A stretch of 64,000 nucleotides of DNA from sequence record MK327932.1; one strand, written 5' to 3'. The notes beneath the pieces were generated by a model, which saw only the letters and a program-made list of their open reading frames with translations, did no database searches and was not told the DNA's origin. Both the position numbers and the translations under genes were made by a program. The DNA comes from Escherichia phage vB_EcoM_G2248. Positions 2,386 through 18,636 of the stretch are shown one piece after another (positions within the stretch are counted from its first letter, which is position 1; every line of letters starts with the position of its first letter).

Positions 2386-3888
2386 ATGCAAGATATTAAA
2401 ATTCACTTTCTGAACTACTCCCATGTTCAAATTGAATGTAGTGATTCAATTTTATTAGAAATGCGAGATTATTTTAGTTTTGAAGTCGAGGGAGCGCGGT
2501 TTCAAAAAAGATTTAAGTATGGCGGTTGGGATGGGCGTATTCGTCTTTTAGACTACAACGGAAAGTTGCCTATCGGCCTAACTAAAACCGTTGGTATCTT
2601 CGCTAAAAATATGGGTTATTCTGTATGGGTAGATCCTCGCTTATTCGAAAAAGAACAGGTTACAGAAGAAGAGATCACAAAATGGTGTAACGACTTAGAA
2701 TTATATTCCGGTGCTAACAGGATCACCCCGCACTGGTATCAATCAAAGGCTGTCTTTGAAGGTATTCATCATAAACGCCGTATGTTAGTTTTGCCTACGT
2801 CCGCTGGTAAATCTGCGATTGCTTGTATGTTGTCTCGTTGGTACTTAGAGAACTACGAAGGGAAAGTGCTGATCATCGTTCCTACCACGTCGCTAGTGCT
2901 GCAAATGCGTGATGATTTTGTTGATTATCGCCAGTTTCCGTATGAAGCAATTCATACTATCATGAGCGGTACTAGTAAACACGTAGGTGATCGCCTGATC
3001 GTTGTTAGTACGTGGCAATCAGCATGTAAACAGCCGAGTGAATGGTTCCAGCAATTTGGGATGGTTATTGTTGATGAATGTCACAAGGCCACTGCTAAAA
3101 ACCTGCTAAACATCGTTACTGATATGGATCATTGCCAGTTTAAGATCGGTATGACTGGTTCCCCTCGTGACGGGAAAGCTAACATGATGCAGTATGTCGG
3201 TCTTTTCGGTGATATTTCTAAGATCGTGAGTATTGACCGCCTGATGGAAGAAGGTCAAGTGACGAAACTGAAAATCAACTGTCTTTTCCTTCGTTATACC
3301 GATGAGGAATGTAGCGCGGTTAAGGGTAGAGAATATGCGGAAGAGATCAAGTATATTACGTCTAACCCACGACGTAATAAGTTTGCTTGTAATTTGGCGC
3401 TAAAACTCGCTAAGAAGGGCGAAAACGTATTCCTGATGTTCCGCAATACTAAGCACGGAAAACTTATGTATGACGCGTTACAGAAGGTACACGACAAGGT
3501 TTATTATATTGACGGTGGAGTTAAGACAGAAGAACGTGATGAATTTAAGAAATTAGCGGAAGGGGAAACAGGGATCATTTGTGTTGCTTCCTATGGTGTT
3601 TTCTCTACTGGTGTTTCAATTAAGAATTTGCACCATGTTATTTTCGGTCATCCCGTGAAGGAATCAACTATCGTTCGTCAGAGTATCGGTCGTGCATTGC
3701 GTAAACATGGTTCGAAAGACATTGCAACGGTCTGGGATCTTATCGATCATTTGGCAGTTAAGACAAAGAGCAAGAATGCTAAGAAACAGTTTAGTCACCT
3801 TAATTATGCTCTTAAACATGCCCTGGAAAGAATAAAAATTTACAACACAGATCGATTCGAATATGTAACGAAAACTATAGAGATTTAA
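2386..3888 (+). CDS. uvsW: UvsW DNA/RNA helicase (SF2)
   Basis: Near-colinear with T4 UvsW as recalled (DIKIHF..SHV, RIRLLDYN, Walker A PTSAGKS, DECH box, HLNYxLKH). Start moved from track GTG 2371 to ATG 2386 (MQDIKIHF, RBS GAGG). Confidence 0.9.
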   Translation: MQDIKIHFLNYSHVQIECSDSILLEMRDYFSFEVEGARFQKRFKYGGWDGRIRLLDYNGKLPIGLTKTVGIFAKNMGYSVWVDPRLFEKEQVTEEEITKWCNDLELYSGANRITPHWYQSKAVFEGIHHKRRMLVLPTSAGKSAIACMLSRWYLENYEGKVLIIVPTTSLVLQMRDDFVDYRQFPYEAIHTIMSGTSKHVGDRLIVVSTWQSACKQPSEWFQQFGMVIVDECHKATAKNLLNIVTDMDHCQFKIGMTGSPRDGKANMMQYVGLFGDISKIVSIDRLMEEGQVTKLKINCLFLRYTDEECSAVKGREYAEEIKYITSNPRRNKFACNLALKLAKKGENVFLMFRNTKHGKLMYDALQKVHDKVYYIDGGVKTEERDEFKKLAEGETGIICVASYGVFSTGVSIKNLHHVIFGHPVKESTIVRQSIGRALRKHGSKDIATVWDLIDHLAVKTKSKNAKKQFSHLNYALKHALERIKIYNTDRFEYVTKTIEI

Positions 3889-3893
3889 TAAAT

Positions 3894-3917
3894 AGGGGCT
3901 TTAATGCCCCTTTATTC
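3894..3917 (+). terminator. rho-independent terminator after uvsW
   Basis: Hairpin AGGGGC-TTTAAT-GCCCCT followed by TTATTCT. Confidence 0.6.
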
Positions 3918-3931
3918 TACGGAGATTAAAA

Positions 3932-4168
3932 ATGATTAGCTTTAAACGTTTTTTGGTTGAGGCCGTTATTGACGGTTTTATGAGTAAGATTTATTCTTGT
4001 AATACTATCGAGGGATTAAATGAACTTGAGGCATATTATGAGAAGCGCAAGAAAGAAACAGAATTGAAACCTGCTGATGATATTTCGATCCGTGATGCCA
4101 TCGCTGGACGCCGTAAGCAACTGGAAGCGGACAACGAGCCGGAAGAGGAGCCGGAAGAGGATTTTTAA
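3932..4168 (+). CDS. uvsW.1: UvsW.1-like small acidic protein
   Basis: 78-aa ORF immediately after uvsW with acidic EPEE tail; synteny with T4 uvsW.1. Confidence 0.6.
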   Translation: MISFKRFLVEAVIDGFMSKIYSCNTIEGLNELEAYYEKRKKETELKPADDISIRDAIAGRRKQLEADNEPEEEPEEDF

Positions 4169-4173
4169 GATAT

Positions 4174-4207
4174 AAAAAAAGCCCCATCATTGATGGGGCA
4201 AAATAAA
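4174..4207. terminator. hairpin terminator between convergent uvsW.1 and uvsY operons
   Basis: A7-GCCCCATCA-T-TGATGGGGC-AAAATAAA; U-run on the minus-strand transcript side. Confidence 0.55.
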
Positions 4208-4232
4208 CCAATTAAAATCGGTTATCAACAAA

Positions 4233-4409
4233 TTACATTAACAGCATTGTTTGCTCTACGAGTTGTTCTTGTTCTTCGCCGTTCGCATCTTCACTAATCG
4301 AACGTTCTGTTACTAGCTGTAAGCAGTAGCCAGTGTGAACAACGCCGTTTTCTGTCTGAACGGATAACGCATCCTCGACAGGTTGTTTACAACAAATACA
4401 GATTTTCAT
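4233..4409 (-). CDS. small Cys-rich protein (uvsY.-2 position)
   Basis: Start moved to internal ATG (MKICICCKQ...) because the track's first 6 codons contain the AGGAGG RBS; 58 aa. Confidence 0.5.
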   Translation of the reverse strand: MKICICCKQPVEDALSVQTENGVVHTGYCLQLVTERSISEDANGEEQEQLVEQTMLLM

Positions 4410-4431
4410 AAAAAATTCCTCCTGCATGTAT

Positions 4432-4886: not shown

Positions 4887-5285
4887 TCACTTTGCAAGTC
4901 TTATGCGTAGTTGTTCAAGATCATCTGGGTTGTCTATTACTGAAAAGTAGATTGATACTATGATTGAGTTATCGTCGTACTGCGGAGTTACTTCTACTGT
5001 CAGGTTTCGGACCCGTGGTTCATAGTTTCGGATCGCCTCATTGATGTTTTTTGATAAGGTATCCACTGTCAGTGGGTTCATGTTCTCAAACAAAGATTTA
5101 TTGAGATCGCATCCAAACAGTGGATCAAATGGACGAGATCCCTTGCGAGTAGTAACGATCAGTAGAATAGAATCCTTAACCGCTTTAATCCCTATGTTCT
5201 TTTTAACGTCGTTATTCCACGATCTGGATATATTGAGATCCAAATCAGTATACATCTGATTAATAGTTGCCATGTTATACCTCAA
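4887..5285 (-). CDS. 25: baseplate wedge protein gp25 (lysozyme-fold)
   Basis: TTRKGSRPFDPxFGCDL and FSVIDNPDD motifs as in T4 gp25. Confidence 0.9.
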   Translation of the reverse strand: MRYNMATINQMYTDLDLNISRSWNNDVKKNIGIKAVKDSILLIVTTRKGSRPFDPLFGCDLNKSLFENMNPLTVDTLSKNINEAIRNYEPRVRNLTVEVTPQYDDNSIIVSIYFSVIDNPDDLEQLRIRLAK

Positions 5286-5911
5286 AGAATTTTAAGGAAA
5301 CTGGATAGACCTGATAATGAATATACACCAGATTCCCCGCATTCGCACTTGATCGGTACTGCCAGCGTGATTTGATTTCTTGTTAGCTCGTCGATCACTT
5401 CTTCCACTTTATCCGTGGTAAGCATATCCAGCAAGCGGTCAAAGTCCTGTGCGTTCAGGTCGTCTATATTGAATTGCTGATCGCCGATCACGATATATTC
5501 GATACATGCAATTACCATCTGCATAATATCAACATCTTCTGTAAACTTAGGTTGACGAAACTTGATTTTTACTTGTCCTAAGTCTAAAATATATGGTTCA
5601 ACTTCTGGTATCTGTGTGCGTGAAACATCAAGAGAGTATACTTTCTCTTTATTGCATACACCACACACCCAAGTAGCATCAATTTTCATCTTATTGAGGC
5701 TGTGACACCATAAGAGAAGAAAAATATATTCTGCTTCGCATTTCTCTAGCTCTAATGCATTGATCCCCGTACATTCATGTATGATCTCTATAACAACCTC
5801 TGACAGCTTGCCAGTCTCTTTTGCTGCTACCAGTTTTTGAAATTCGCCGAAGGTGAAAGCACGGGCGTGTATCAACTTTTCGCCTAATTGGATCTTGAAA
5901 AAGTATTGCAT
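5282..5911 (-). CDS. 26: baseplate hub protein gp26
   Basis: 209 aa, ATGA-overlap with gene 25, synteny 25-26-51. Confidence 0.8.
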   Translation of the reverse strand: MQYFFKIQLGEKLIHARAFTFGEFQKLVAAKETGKLSEVVIEIIHECTGINALELEKCEAEYIFLLLWCHSLNKMKIDATWVCGVCNKEKVYSLDVSRTQIPEVEPYILDLGQVKIKFRQPKFTEDVDIMQMVIACIEYIVIGDQQFNIDDLNAQDFDRLLDMLTTDKVEEVIDELTRNQITLAVPIKCECGESGVYSLSGLSSFLKIL

Positions 5912-13493: not shown

Positions 13494-15545
13494 TTACATT
13501 TTAAATTTATCTGGCATTGCGTCTACAGATACCAGATCAGCGATAAGCTGACGTAGAGTTGCCTTATCTGCTTTCTTACGTTCGGTTTTAGCTTCGCTAA
13601 TGAAGCTGGAGAAAGACAGGTCAGAAGCAGGTTTAACAACACCTTCACGGATGAATGCATCACCGTCCGCGATCATCTCGCCAGATTCTTGTAATGCTGC
13701 CAGTTCATTTTTGTTCATAATATGTGCCTCAATGTAATAAGTTTCTTGTGAATCCGTCGATGCCGTAGCACGAGTTACCGTATCAAAGGATAACACAACA
13801 CCGCGAGGAAGTAAAATCTCGCATTCTTTGTAAGCAAATGCTTTGTTACCTACTGGCAAGACAGGGATGTTTTCCGCGCCAGCAATGGAGAAAGCAACAT
13901 TAGCGCCACCTTCACCGCGAGAGCCAGCCATAGAATCAACACCAGCAACGGCACTAGCCACGTTTGCATTCCAGCCGCCAAAAATGTTAGGTGCAAGGGA
14001 AGTGCTCACATAGTTTTTAAAGTAAAACGCTTTTTGCTTACGTGCAGTTTCCCACATTTGCGACCGGAAGTCCATACCACGATACAGAATAGTACCCGGA
14101 TCAAGTTTAACGCCATAGTTGGAGAAGGCATTATCCAGTGCATCGCACATCTTGACCAATTCTTCTGGATCTGAGATGCCTTCAAACTCTTCCAGCTTAC
14201 GATCAGTTAGGAAGTTGTTCATATTGATGTATGCTGCATCGGCATATTCGCTCAACACAAAACCTTCCGCGCCTGGCAGATCAAGATCAATATCTGCCAT
14301 CATTTCACCCATGTTACTAGCAATTGCTTCAAACATACCGGAAGCAACATTACGCAGGGCATCGGTTTTAATCTGGGTGATATGACTACGCAGCATTTCA
14401 GCTTTTACATCTGCTGGCATAGACTGGTCTACTCGATCCATTGCCAGGGCGGTGATCTTGTTTTCGAATACTTCCTCGCTCATGATTTCTTTTAAGCGTT
14501 TGATTGATGCTGCGATAACTTCCGCAGACAACGGATCATATTGATCCTGAACTTTTACCAGTTCGCTTACTGCGTATTTTGCATCGGCTTCGCTTTCAAA
14601 AATAGTACGCATGAAACCATAGCGAGTGATAATATCACTTGTCCAGTCATTCAGAGAACGGGCGGTTGAACGTTCTAAGGCTTGACGATCAATCAGAGTA
14701 TTAAACTGTTTCTTAGGTTCGGCTTCGGTGATATCTTCTTCCGGTTTAAGATTAATTTTTTCTGGATGATTCACATAGTCGCTGTTATAGGTCGCTTGAG
14801 TTTTCAGCATTTCTTCTTTAGTCAAACGAGATTTAGCCGCTACGCGTTGTTCCGCTTCCGCGTTTCGTTCTTCTTCTGACACCAGACTAGCCGCATACGC
14901 CTCATCTTTAGTCAGAGATTCACCAGTAGCCTTAGATACCCAGCGATCACCTAAATCACTTTCTACTTTAGTGAACAAGGAATCATCAAGTTTAATCCCT
15001 TTAATCTTATCAATCGCCATACCGCGACGCTTGACAACAACTAAAGCGATCTTTTTGCTGGTCATTACTTCCTGCTGGAATACTTCAAACTTCGGTGTAC
15101 GACGCACCAAACGCTCTATAACGCGCTTAACCAGTTCGGTCTTACCTTTCATGCGGGATACGTTAAAACGGAACATAACAGCGTCTAATTGCGCTTTACG
15201 GGCTGTTTCCATAACCACATCAAAAGCACTTGCCATAACTGCAATCGGGTTATCGCCTAGACCATTTTTAAGCTGTACAATACGACCGCTTTTGTTCATT
15301 TCGCACAGTACAACATGTGCGGTCTTGTCACCCATACGAATGATTTTAGGTGTTTTGTTGGTGAAGTTACAAAGACGGACAATCACATCTTTATCGCGTG
15401 TCTGTACTGCAAAAAGCTGTTTAGGATTCTGCTTAGGCTTTAAGCACTGTACCGGAGCAATACTGCCAAAGTTTTCTTCCTCTTCCGTCAACAGCCATTT
15501 CTCGAAAGATTCAATCATTAGATCGTCGATTTCTAAGTTAAACAT
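13494..15545 (-). CDS. alt: Alt ADP-ribosyltransferase (packaged, modifies host RNA polymerase in T4)
   Basis: 683 aa (T4 Alt ~682); R-S-ExE catalytic motifs; position after gene 54 as in T4. Confidence 0.85.
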   Translation of the reverse strand: MFNLEIDDLMIESFEKWLLTEEEENFGSIAPVQCLKPKQNPKQLFAVQTRDKDVIVRLCNFTNKTPKIIRMGDKTAHVVLCEMNKSGRIVQLKNGLGDNPIAVMASAFDVVMETARKAQLDAVMFRFNVSRMKGKTELVKRVIERLVRRTPKFEVFQQEVMTSKKIALVVVKRRGMAIDKIKGIKLDDSLFTKVESDLGDRWVSKATGESLTKDEAYAASLVSEEERNAEAEQRVAAKSRLTKEEMLKTQATYNSDYVNHPEKINLKPEEDITEAEPKKQFNTLIDRQALERSTARSLNDWTSDIITRYGFMRTIFESEADAKYAVSELVKVQDQYDPLSAEVIAASIKRLKEIMSEEVFENKITALAMDRVDQSMPADVKAEMLRSHITQIKTDALRNVASGMFEAIASNMGEMMADIDLDLPGAEGFVLSEYADAAYINMNNFLTDRKLEEFEGISDPEELVKMCDALDNAFSNYGVKLDPGTILYRGMDFRSQMWETARKQKAFYFKNYVSTSLAPNIFGGWNANVASAVAGVDSMAGSRGEGGANVAFSIAGAENIPVLPVGNKAFAYKECEILLPRGVVLSFDTVTRATASTDSQETYYIEAHIMNKNELAALQESGEMIADGDAFIREGVVKPASDLSFSSFISEAKTERKKADKATLRQLIADLVSVDAMPDKFKM

Positions 15546-15825: not shown

Positions 15826-15896
15826 TTGATACTCCTTAGTAGTTCGTTTCGGTATGGGTGTATTATGATATACACCCTCTGTTATGTCAACAACTT

Positions 15897-16076: not shown

Positions 16077-16108
16077 GTTTGATTCTCCTTTCGTTTCGGT
16101 ATGTGTGC

Positions 16109-16137
16109 ATTATAGGGGATCGGTGACCCCCTGTCAA
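16109..16137 (-). promoter_or_regulatory. sigma70-type early promoter cassette (example)
   Basis: Minus strand TTGACA (16132-16137), 17-nt palindromic spacer GGGGGTCACCGATCCCC, TATAAT (16109-16114), then conserved leader with GGAGAA RBS. Confidence 0.7.
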
Positions 16138-16144
16138 CAACTTT

Positions 16145-16663
16145 TTAGTTATTTTTTAATTGTTCATCTTGCAATAATGCAATCACATGCTGGCGATGTT
16201 CTTCCGATTGAGGCACACCGAAAAAGTTTGTTTTGTAGAAATACTCTAATCGGTCTTCTCGTGTGCTCTCTTCCATCATGATCGCGGGTAGTCCGAGATT
16301 TCGGAAACGTCGCTTTTCTGCTGGCGTAAAATCACTGTAATACAACATAGAATCATCATTACCAGCAATGCTAAACTCATCATTCATGAAGGAGAATATT
16401 GCGTTTAAACGCTGTTTACCGTCCACGATTTCGATCTCATAGCGAGAGCCATCATCAATCTTAGCCATTGCGATAGCACCAACCGGAAAATCATTAATCA
16501 GGTTTTCGATAAACATACGTTTGTTTTCGGTGTCCCATACCAAAGGACGCTGATAATCTGGGTTCATGTTGATATATCCATCTTCTAACCACGCCTCATA
16601 AACAGAGATGACAAAGTTTTTAGTATTGGTATAGTAACGGCGTTTAGGCGTTAAACGGTTCAT
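16145..16663 (-). CDS. DUF262 / ParB-like domain protein (GmrSD N-terminal-domain-like)
   Basis: Motifs DYQRPLVWD and IVDGKQRL typical of DUF262; start moved to ATG at 16663 (MNRLTPK, RBS AGGAGA), 172 aa. Confidence 0.6.
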   Translation of the reverse strand: MNRLTPKRRYYTNTKNFVISVYEAWLEDGYINMNPDYQRPLVWDTENKRMFIENLINDFPVGAIAMAKIDDGSRYEIEIVDGKQRLNAIFSFMNDEFSIAGNDDSMLYYSDFTPAEKRRFRNLGLPAIMMEESTREDRLEYFYKTNFFGVPQSEEHRQHVIALLQDEQLKNN

Positions 16664-16664
16664 G

Positions 16665-16997
16665 TTATAGTCTCCTGAATGGATCATCACGTAAATCAAT
16701 ATCTTTTAAGAACTCATCCCATGAATGGCGGATATTGTTCTTAATTCTCCAGATAAGCGCAGGGATTGAACGCTCTCCCATCTGGAAGTATGGATCATAT
16801 GATCCGTATGCCCAATATGCTACTACAATTCCACAATCAGCGCAATAGTATTCTATTTCACTTGCTGGCGACCAAAGTCCATCAATATGATCGGTGATCT
16901 TGCTTTCGATGTTATGGCTATGACAATCAGGGCAACGGATGCAATGACCTTGTTTATCGTAATTTGACGTTAGCGAATACTTAAACAATCTCATCAT
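16665..16997 (-). CDS. zinc-ribbon protein
   Basis: CxxC...CxxC (CIRCPDCHSH ... YCADCG); translationally coupled to both neighbours. Confidence 0.55.
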   Translation of the reverse strand: MMRLFKYSLTSNYDKQGHCIRCPDCHSHNIESKITDHIDGLWSPASEIEYYCADCGIVVAYWAYGSYDPYFQMGERSIPALIWRIKNNIRHSWDEFLKDIDLRDDPFRRL

Positions 16998-17710
16998 AGA
17001 TCCTTATTTGCTTCAAATACTGCCTTTGCGAATCCTCGCGGGGTAAGTGACCTGATAGTCTTTGTTTTCGTTCCTTTCCCGCCTAGCTTAGAATGCTGTT
17101 TACTGTACCCTTTATTAATCTGCAAAGGTTTCTTTTCTGGCATTATAAAGCCTTGTCCGGTCCATAAGCAAGTCTTTTTCGGGTACATATCACGGGCGGC
17201 AATATACTCAGGAAAAGTAGGATGTTTATCATCTTCCGGCAAATAACCGCCATATTCCCACGGATGGAACATATAATCAGGCTTACGCCACATGCTAGAG
17301 ATAACGCTTACAGGATTCTCTATCATGTAGGGAACTCCTAGCCATTCACCCAAATAAGCGGTTATTTTAGCTGCCCTTACATCATGAACTTGAATCAATG
17401 GTCCTTGCTCTCGTTTCTTTCGTTCAAAGTGTGCAGCGCCACTAACAGCTAAATTGGTGCACGGTGGGAATGCAAAGATAATATCCGGTTTCCCCCATTC
17501 AAGGTCCATTGCTCTTTCCAGCCAGTTCAAATCAATCCATGTGTTTACATAGGTAATGTTTGGATGTTCAAATCGGGTATTATACTTTTTGTATGTACCG
17601 TGGTCGCCATCGTCAGCATTAAAGCAGATCACCTTATGACCTGCTTTAGCCCATTCTAACCCCATTATCCCCGATCCGTCAAAGTTGCAGAATATTAATT
17701 TTTGTTTCAC
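16994..17710 (-). CDS. minimal C5-cytosine methyltransferase-like protein (no obvious target-recognition domain)
   Basis: Motif I-like FDGSGIMG, motif IV-like FPPCTNLAVSG (Pro-Cys), motif VI-like IENPV, C-terminal RSLTPRG resembling the LTPRE motif; only 238 aa. Confidence 0.55.
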   Translation of the reverse strand: MKQKLIFCNFDGSGIMGLEWAKAGHKVICFNADDGDHGTYKKYNTRFEHPNITYVNTWIDLNWLERAMDLEWGKPDIIFAFPPCTNLAVSGAAHFERKKREQGPLIQVHDVRAAKITAYLGEWLGVPYMIENPVSVISSMWRKPDYMFHPWEYGGYLPEDDKHPTFPEYIAARDMYPKKTCLWTGQGFIMPEKKPLQINKGYSKQHSKLGGKGTKTKTIRSLTPRGFAKAVFEANKDL

Positions 17711-17958
17711 GCTGCCCCCATTGGTTTGATAGTAACAGAATCTAAAAGACCTTTGTTAGCCAGTTCGCGGCAAGTTTTCAGATCCGCAACTTCCCAGCCA
17801 GCCGCAATCAGGTTGTCAATGAGGCTGTTAGCAACTTCTTCGCTCATGAAAGAGCACTGTTTGCCGATGGTGTAGCGTACACGCTGTAATTTCAGTTTAC
17901 GGAAGCCTTTAACGTTCAGGTCTTTAGCGATTTTCTTTGCGGTTTCGATGTTAGCCAT
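17707..17958 (-). CDS. hypothetical early protein
   Basis: 83 aa, promoter cassette upstream (TTGACA at 18022-18027 minus). Confidence 0.5.
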   Translation of the reverse strand: MANIETAKKIAKDLNVKGFRKLKLQRVRYTIGKQCSFMSEEVANSLIDNLIAAGWEVADLKTCRELANKGLLDSVTIKPMGAA

Positions 17959-18041
17959 TGTTTGATTCTCCTAAGTGGTATCTCGTCTTGATGGTTGCAT
18001 TGTAGGGGAGTTATCCTCCCCTGTCAACACTTTTTATAAAA

Positions 18042-18209: not shown

Positions 18210-18285
18210 TTTGATTCTCCTATTTCGTTTCGGTATGTGTGTAGTATAGGGGATCTCCCGATCCCCGTCAACAACTTTTTTAAAA

Positions 18286-18567: not shown

Positions 18568-18636
18568 TTTTGATTCTCCAATTCGTTTCGGTATGGGTGT
18601 ATTATGCTATGTTCTTACTTTGGTGTCAACAACTTT

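Follow-up and report, generated by a model that had tools for sequence, protein, structure and literature searches.

A compact methyltransferase-fold protein in a four-gene early unit of an RB49-like Escherichia phage

Locus and gene content

We analysed a group of early genes at positions 16,145 to 17,710 of a 64,000-nucleotide stretch of DNA from Escherichia phage vB_EcoM_G2248 (sequence record MK327932.1). The whole stretch is called the window. Three minus-strand genes lie here and encode a methylase-like protein, a zinc-ribbon protein and a stand-alone DUF262 protein (the trio; Table 1). An earlier note on this DNA had proposed that they act as one module. Our main result is negative: the trio appears to be a genus-specific juxtaposition in a region prone to shuffling and not a new system. 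The remaining interest is the family of the methylase-like protein itself, which has a C5-methyltransferase fold, lacks a target recognition domain (TRD) and is invisible to Pfam.

Over 15.5–18.3 kb, the window was 98.6% identical to Escherichia phage RB49 and 97.5–98.2% identical to the other listed Krischvirus genomes. By its sequence, it belongs to a Krischvirus (RB49-like) phage. The trio corresponds to three RB49 genes (238, 110 and 172 aa) located just upstream of alt. Public labels of these genes include 'DNA methyltransferase', 'putative C-5 cytosine DNA methylase' and 'Dcm', as well as 'DUF262 domain protein' in phage W115. In RB49-like phages (Krischvirus), the trio genes belong to the accessory early genes, and they were annotated before this analysis. 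To our knowledge, T4 lacks the combination, and the earlier note likewise knew of none in the T4 reference gene set; it does belong to the RB49 reference gene set. Each trio gene was found at ≥95% identity in 56 Krischvirus records, so the trio was kept in all 56. As the homologues of each open reading frame (ORF) number hundreds to thousands, a chance pattern is excluded.

The ORFs, the strand and the codon overlaps of the three genes were as described earlier, but the unit behind the promoter has four genes. The promoter cassette at its head precedes an 83-aa ORF and not the methylase-like gene directly, and the stop codon of this ORF overlaps (GTGA) the GTG with which the methylase-like gene starts. 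The methylase-like and zinc-ribbon genes overlap by ATGA, and the zinc-ribbon and DUF262 genes are joined by TAA-C-ATG. The 83-aa ORF had no Pfam match above threshold.

Table 1. Features of the early region in the window
Feature	Position	Strand	Remarks
Early sigma-70-type promoter cassette	17999..18027	-	TTGACA, 17 nt with GGGG...CCCC stem, TACAAT; consensus scan 11/12; heads the unit
83-aa ORF, first gene of the unit	17707..17958	-	phrog_14908, E 5e-59 (PHROG label: unknown function)
Compact C5-cytosine-methyltransferase-fold protein, 238 aa, GTG start	16994..17710	-	RB49p189 homologue; phrog_757, E 2e-90
Zinc-ribbon protein, 110 aa	16665..16997	-	RB49p188 homologue; phrog_2993, E 5e-34
Stand-alone DUF262 (GmrSD_N, ParB/Srx fold) protein, 172 aa from ATG	16145..16663	-	RB49p187 homologue; PHROG match, E 3e-53
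Next early promoter cassette	16109..16137	-	TTGACA-17-TATAAT around GGGGG...CCCC stem; consensus 12/12; downstream end of the unit
Tight promoter/stem-loop cassettes	15844-15891, 16091-16138, 18225-18272, 18583-18630	-	Pattern match; 17999-18027 is a looser copy
Alt-like RNA polymerase ADP-ribosyltransferase	13494-15545	-	phrog_802, E 6e-180; immediately downstream of the early-gene block

Motifs, fold and family of the methylase-like protein

Four methylase motifs had been read in this protein, and all were present in order in the translation: FDGSGIMG (residues 10–17), FPPCTNLAVSG (81–91), ENPV (131–134) and RSLTPRG (220–226). Fold comparison and alignment gave a class I S-adenosylmethionine (AdoMet)-dependent methyltransferase fold with the motif order of C5-type enzymes. 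As the catalytic Pro-Cys and the ENx-Glu were also present, the earlier methyltransferase call holds.

In an alignment of 64 diverse members of the family, C84 (of FPPC), G91, E131 and P133 (of ENP), P150, K178, T180, W183, P191 and R220 were invariant. Motif IV (F81-P82-P83-C84) had its Cys in 64/64 members, and in motif VI E131 was found in 64/64, N132 in 61/64 and P133 in 64/64. Motif I reads F10-D-G-S-G14 in the window and L-F-D-x-[ST]-G in the family consensus. Strand 2 ended in D in 57/64 members and in N in the window protein. Judged from these motifs, cofactor binding is plausible. Motifs IX and X appeared merged (IRSxTPRGFAxAV). The interval between W183 and R220 comprises ~35 residues and is partly conserved (LGGKSxxTK); a variable TRD was not found in it. 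The earlier observation that 238 aa leave no room for a conventional TRD is thus correct.

The PF00145 score of the window protein was 14.4 bits, below the gathering cut-off of 22. The PHROG match was to a family labelled 'DNA methyltransferase'. NCBIfam gave no match for the methylase-like or the DUF262 protein. A search of the PDB sequences with the single protein gave no match, and a search with the family profile gave nothing significant (M.HaeIII at E 1.1). Because neither sequence search was significant, only the fold comparison was informative. An hhalign comparison of the family with Escherichia coli Dcm as a single sequence aligned motif I alone (E 0.4) and was too weak to use.

The closest solved structures were the catalytic domains of DNMT3A and DNMT3B (11–18% identity, TM ~0.5). 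The DNMT3 catalytic domain has ~285 aa, whereas the window protein has 238 aa, is phage-encoded and lacks the regulatory domains. The likeness is probably a convergence in compactness and not close kinship. The PF00145 enzymes M.HhaI, M.HaeIII, Dcm and that of prophage CP-933R (3g7u) share the fold and the order of motifs I, IV, VI, VIII-like and IX/X-like, and the window protein is annotated in RefSeq and GenBank as a C5-cytosine DNA methyltransferase of this type. It is ~90 residues shorter than M.HhaI (327 aa), whose TRD comprises ~80 residues, compared with the ~35 residues here. The DNA cytosine C5-carboxymethyltransferase CmoX of Synechococcus phage S-B43 (PDB 8yf3; PMC12783734) is also longer (333 aa).

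The family had 7,310 matches in a database clustered at 90%. Clustering at 50% identity gave 1,152 clusters, nearly all with proteins of 200–260 aa. A family of this size and uniform length implies purifying selection on a compact enzyme. The longer members that were tested for fusions carried no extra Pfam domain except for one sub-threshold match. The gene was found in 1,521 of 50,697 phage records (~3%), and 1,458 of the matches covered ≥80% of the query. By organism name, 575 of these records were Escherichia phages and 521 were Klebsiella phages; the example records that were opened included Dhillonvirus (Sponge), Vequintavirus (FV3) and phiKO2. Surveys based on PF00145 miss this family. 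Records routinely call its members 'DNA methyltransferase' or 'Dcm', with no evidence behind the label.

A second profile, phrog_27471 (93 aa; PHROG label: unknown function), matched residues 129–154 only, from ENPV to F-x-P (E 9e-8). It was probably built from fragments of the methylase-like enzyme.

Zinc-ribbon and DUF262 proteins

The zinc-ribbon ORF has two CxxC knuckles (C19-x-x-C22 and C52-x-x-C55), which agrees with the earlier call. Its PHROG family is labelled unknown function, and its match to Pfam Zn_Ribbon_TF (E 5.6e-4) was below the cut-off.

The 172-aa protein matched DUF262/GmrSD_N (PF03235) with 73.1 bits (threshold 33.2). It contains DYQR and DGKQR, and YQR, DGKQR and GVPQSEEH were invariant in 10/10 aligned proteins. 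The fold comparison identified a ParB/Srx fold. Neither a DUF1524/HNH nuclease nor a separate GmrD subunit was found in the protein or the flanking ORFs with Pfam, PHROGs and PADLOC. The description as a DUF262 domain without a nuclease half, which ends at 172 aa, was therefore right. GmrSD, BrxU and SspE share the N-terminal DUF262 domain, but the window protein lacks their DUF1524/HNH half and comes from a lytic phage with unmodified DNA. In contrast to the ParB N-terminal (CTPase) domain proteins, PadC, KorB and sulfiredoxin, it has no helix-turn-helix or dimerisation domain and no evident parS-type partner.

Proteins of ~170 aa with only a DUF262 domain were also found in RB43 (comparison stretch 2971–3507), KP27 (2980–3507), a Morganella phage (2974–3489) and ST64B (2995–3510). 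Such short proteins occurred mainly in Krischvirus, Pseudotevenvirus and Slopekvirus and in a Salmonella prophage (ST64B), and none were among the Tequatrovirus or Mosigvirus matches. The former three are T4-like genera reported to be without non-canonical bases (PMC8056088). This distribution would suit a sensor of a phage-borne exclusion system, which would act like GmrS against competitors with modified cytosine and would have its nuclease encoded elsewhere. The best PADLOC matches of the DUF262 protein were defence proteins. Moreover, the DUF262 gene overlaps an unannotated gene for ~300 aa in KP27 (KP27_188, 3504–4418) and in Morganella phage vB_Mm5 (MM5_149, 3482–4372), which is a candidate partner. 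Against this stands that no nuclease domain was detected in the DUF262 protein or the neighbours examined, and that RB49-type phages have no counterpart of the ~300-aa gene downstream of DUF262. We consider an exclusion sensor very unlikely. The ~300-aa genes were also considered as GmrD-like nucleases, and neither Pfam nor PADLOC gave support for this.

Gene neighbourhoods in other phages

We examined IMG/VR loci with 6-kb flanks, 80 anchored on the methylase-like gene and 37 on DUF262, by tblastn and by a hidden Markov model search of all ORFs. None of the 79 non-Krischvirus methylase-like loci had a DUF262 or zinc-ribbon gene within 6 kb, and the single Krischvirus locus was positive. Likewise, none of the 35 non-Krischvirus DUF262 loci had a methylase-like or zinc-ribbon gene within 6 kb, and the two Krischvirus loci were positive. 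Hence, the juxtaposition of the trio is genus-specific, and the neighbourhood conservation across unrelated genomes that marks an operon-level module was not found.

The annotated contexts in RB43, KP27, ST64B, the Morganella phage, JenP1, Alf5, Sponge, FV3 and phiKO2 agreed with this. In RB43, RB16, KP27-type phages, a Morganella T4-like phage and prophage ST64B, the short DUF262 gene had no zinc-ribbon or methylase-like neighbour. The genes upstream of DUF262 in RB43 and KP27 were rejected as zinc-ribbon homologues (BLASTP E 0.39 and 8). In Nonagvirus and Felixounavirus, the zinc-ribbon family occurs by itself, and the genes next to it are unrelated. The methylase-like gene had no conserved neighbour in five annotated contexts, and no neighbour family was found in more than 15 of the 80 viral loci. 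The recurrent neighbours were integrase-like, replicative helicase-like and HNH families, as assigned by eye from representative sequences. In Dhillonvirus, Vequintavirus, phiKO2 and metagenomic contigs, the genes around it encode helicase, polymerase, primase, HNH and Dam proteins.

Even Krischvirus genomes differ in the composition of the unit. RB49, TB34 and SAP have an extra gene of 246 nt, RB49p189.1, between the 83-aa and the methylase-like genes (RB49 comparison stretch 5207–5452), which is missing from the window (~17707–17710) and from phage E26.

The promoter cassettes of the region are of a common type. The sequence context read at the cassette that heads the unit is aaaagtgttgacaggggaggataactcccctacaat. 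The pattern GTTGACR-N18-AYART-N5-CATACCGAAACGA had four matches in the window, whereas none were expected by chance. Early promoter/stem-loop (PeSL) cassettes of RB49-type phages have reportedly been described by the Krisch laboratory. They share the TTGACA, GC stem, TATAAT, CATACCGAAACGA and Shine-Dalgarno elements upstream of small early genes; nothing is unusual here. PeSL-type cassettes are a likely means of shuffling unrelated genes into one unit, and such shuffling is the simplest account of the juxtaposition. As a side observation, cassettes with these elements stand before nearly every small gene in this region.

We also considered that the trio or the whole four-gene unit is one system for modification, anti-restriction or exclusion, in which the methylase without a TRD would be targeted or loaded by the DUF262 NTPase and the zinc-ribbon protein. 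The overlapping codons, the shared promoter, the conservation of all three genes in the 56 records and a methylase without its own recognition domain speak for it, and phages commonly encode DNA methyltransferases that are fused to a ParB-like domain. The overlaps and conservation leave some room for cooperation within the genus. However, tight packing and overlapping codons are the norm in the early regions of T4-type genomes, the adjacency was absent from all 79 and 35 loci outside Krischvirus, the unit varies within the genus and the longer family members tested showed no extra Pfam domain beyond one sub-threshold match. One system is thus rather doubtful. The unit would instead be assembled from independently mobile accessory genes in a plastic early region and would not be a co-evolved system. 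The DUF262 protein would be an independent ParB/Srx-fold protein with predicted NTP binding, and the zinc-ribbon protein an independent small protein.

Predicted activity of the methylase-like protein

We see about an even chance that the protein is an orphan methyltransferase that uses AdoMet to modify cytosine C5 in DNA, has a minimal recognition element, is made early and acts at sparse sites. Pro-Cys and ENx-Glu are invariant across a large family of uniform size, which argues for a working C5-pyrimidine-modifying enzyme. Cys84 would attack C6 of a flipped-out cytosine, Glu131 would protonate N3 and the methyl group would pass from AdoMet to C5. The cofactor would be held by the retained N-terminal Rossmann motif, FDGSG, together with the residue that ends strand 2, which is acidic or an amide. 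Since only ~35 residues lie between the motif VIII-like (Y-x-K-x-T-C-x-W) and the IX/X-like segments, the recognised sequence would be short. The protein may have to self-associate for recognition, like DNMT3, whose fold is the closest solved one. An enzyme made early would mark sparse sites in replicating phage DNA, i.e. as orphan anti-restriction methylation. The solitary distribution and the replication-gene neighbours in other phages fit an orphan methyltransferase.

Several observations weigh against this prediction. The first Gly of motif I was found in 7/64 members only. The canonical motif VIII (Q-x-R-x-R) is missing, and the invariant Y176-x-K178-x-T180-C-x-W183 stands in its place. 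With PF00145, 2/64 members reached E < 0.01 and 62/64 were below the threshold. Our literature search found no experimental characterisation or activity of any family member. HpaII and NheI, two enzymes that 5-methylcytosine (m5C) blocks, cut RB49 DNA (PMC4041780, Fig. S1). Virion DNA of Krischvirus TB34 had no detectable modified nucleoside, and BrxU, which cleaves DNA with m5C, did not cleave TB34 DNA (PMC13390438). Methylation of packaged DNA is therefore rare or absent. The enzyme does not bulk-modify virion DNA. The same data, together with the confinement of the trio to Krischvirus, speak against the modification, anti-restriction or decoy unit of the earlier note. For Drexlerviridae, the BASEL study reported no simple pattern between methyltransferase genes and resistance or sensitivity to restriction (PMC8594841).

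An active enzyme of this fold could have another substrate, such as host DNA, single-stranded replication intermediates or, like Dnmt2, tRNA or other RNA. It could also transfer another group, such as the carboxymethyl group of carboxy-S-adenosylmethionine (Cx-SAM), like CmoX. We regard this as possible, with about half the support given to DNA methylation. Against it, DNA enzymes gave the best fold matches, the gene usually neighbours Dam and genes of DNA replication, and no Cx-SAM synthase or other cofactor gene was nearby. Pfam, PHROGs and the annotation of the neighbours revealed no hypermodification genes in the vicinity of the window gene. Moreover, rare site-specific m5C would likewise escape the published assays.

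A related proposal is somewhat less probable. The family of ~230 aa may be a DNMT3-like core without a TRD that acts off packaged phage DNA (on host DNA, replication intermediates or RNA) or adds another group to C5, and in Krischvirus it may borrow the DUF262 and zinc-ribbon proteins for targeting. This would explain why virion DNA of RB49 and TB34 has no detectable modified cytosine.

Knowing whether the family methylates DNA, and where, would change predictions of how phages resist restriction, BREX and type IV systems. The family could also yield a very small C5-modifying enzyme as a tool.

DUF262 protein and type IV restriction

The DUF262 protein had been proposed as a decoy or regulator of GmrSD-like systems. 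Such a decoy or inhibitor of host type IV enzymes of the GmrSD/BrxU type is suggested by its lack of a nuclease half and by its homology to the domain that GmrSD, BrxU and SspE carry at the N-terminus. RB49 lacks 5-hydroxymethylcytosine (hmC), and its plating on cells that express GmrSD is normal (PMC4437046, Table 3). A decoy would thus have no evident use in this phage. In addition, the related short DUF262 proteins are mainly found in the T4-like genera reported without non-canonical bases (PMC8056088). SAP, which encodes the same DUF262 protein, is BrxU-sensitive (PMC13390438); hence, the protein gives no protection against BrxU. These data speak against the decoy proposal, which we consider barely plausible.

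SAP was reported to contain hmC and its glycosylated form, in a modification profile that matched seven Tequatrovirus phages from the same collection (PMC13390438). Its DUF262 protein is 98.8% identical to that of the window and identical to that of TB34. SAP and TB34 had no substitutions in this region, and all trio proteins are identical. The trio genes therefore do not explain the difference between the two phages, and the hmC and glucosyl-hmC reported for SAP cannot be attributed to the trio. The equality of the SAP profile with that of the Tequatrovirus phages may point to a mixed lysate.

The two phages differ in this region by a perfect tandem duplication in SAP, in which the 80-bp promoter cassette immediately after the DUF262 gene is repeated (SAP 2079–2238, TB34 2079–2159). 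The other differences were four 1-nt indels; three were in T runs, and two of these three directly adjoined promoter -35 elements. All four indels (SAP 4599, 4957 and 5813; TB34 5705; positions in the comparison stretches) were outside the trio ORFs.

Next to alt, RB49 also encodes another ADP-ribosyltransferase, a shorter paralogue (RB49 comparison stretch 93–917).

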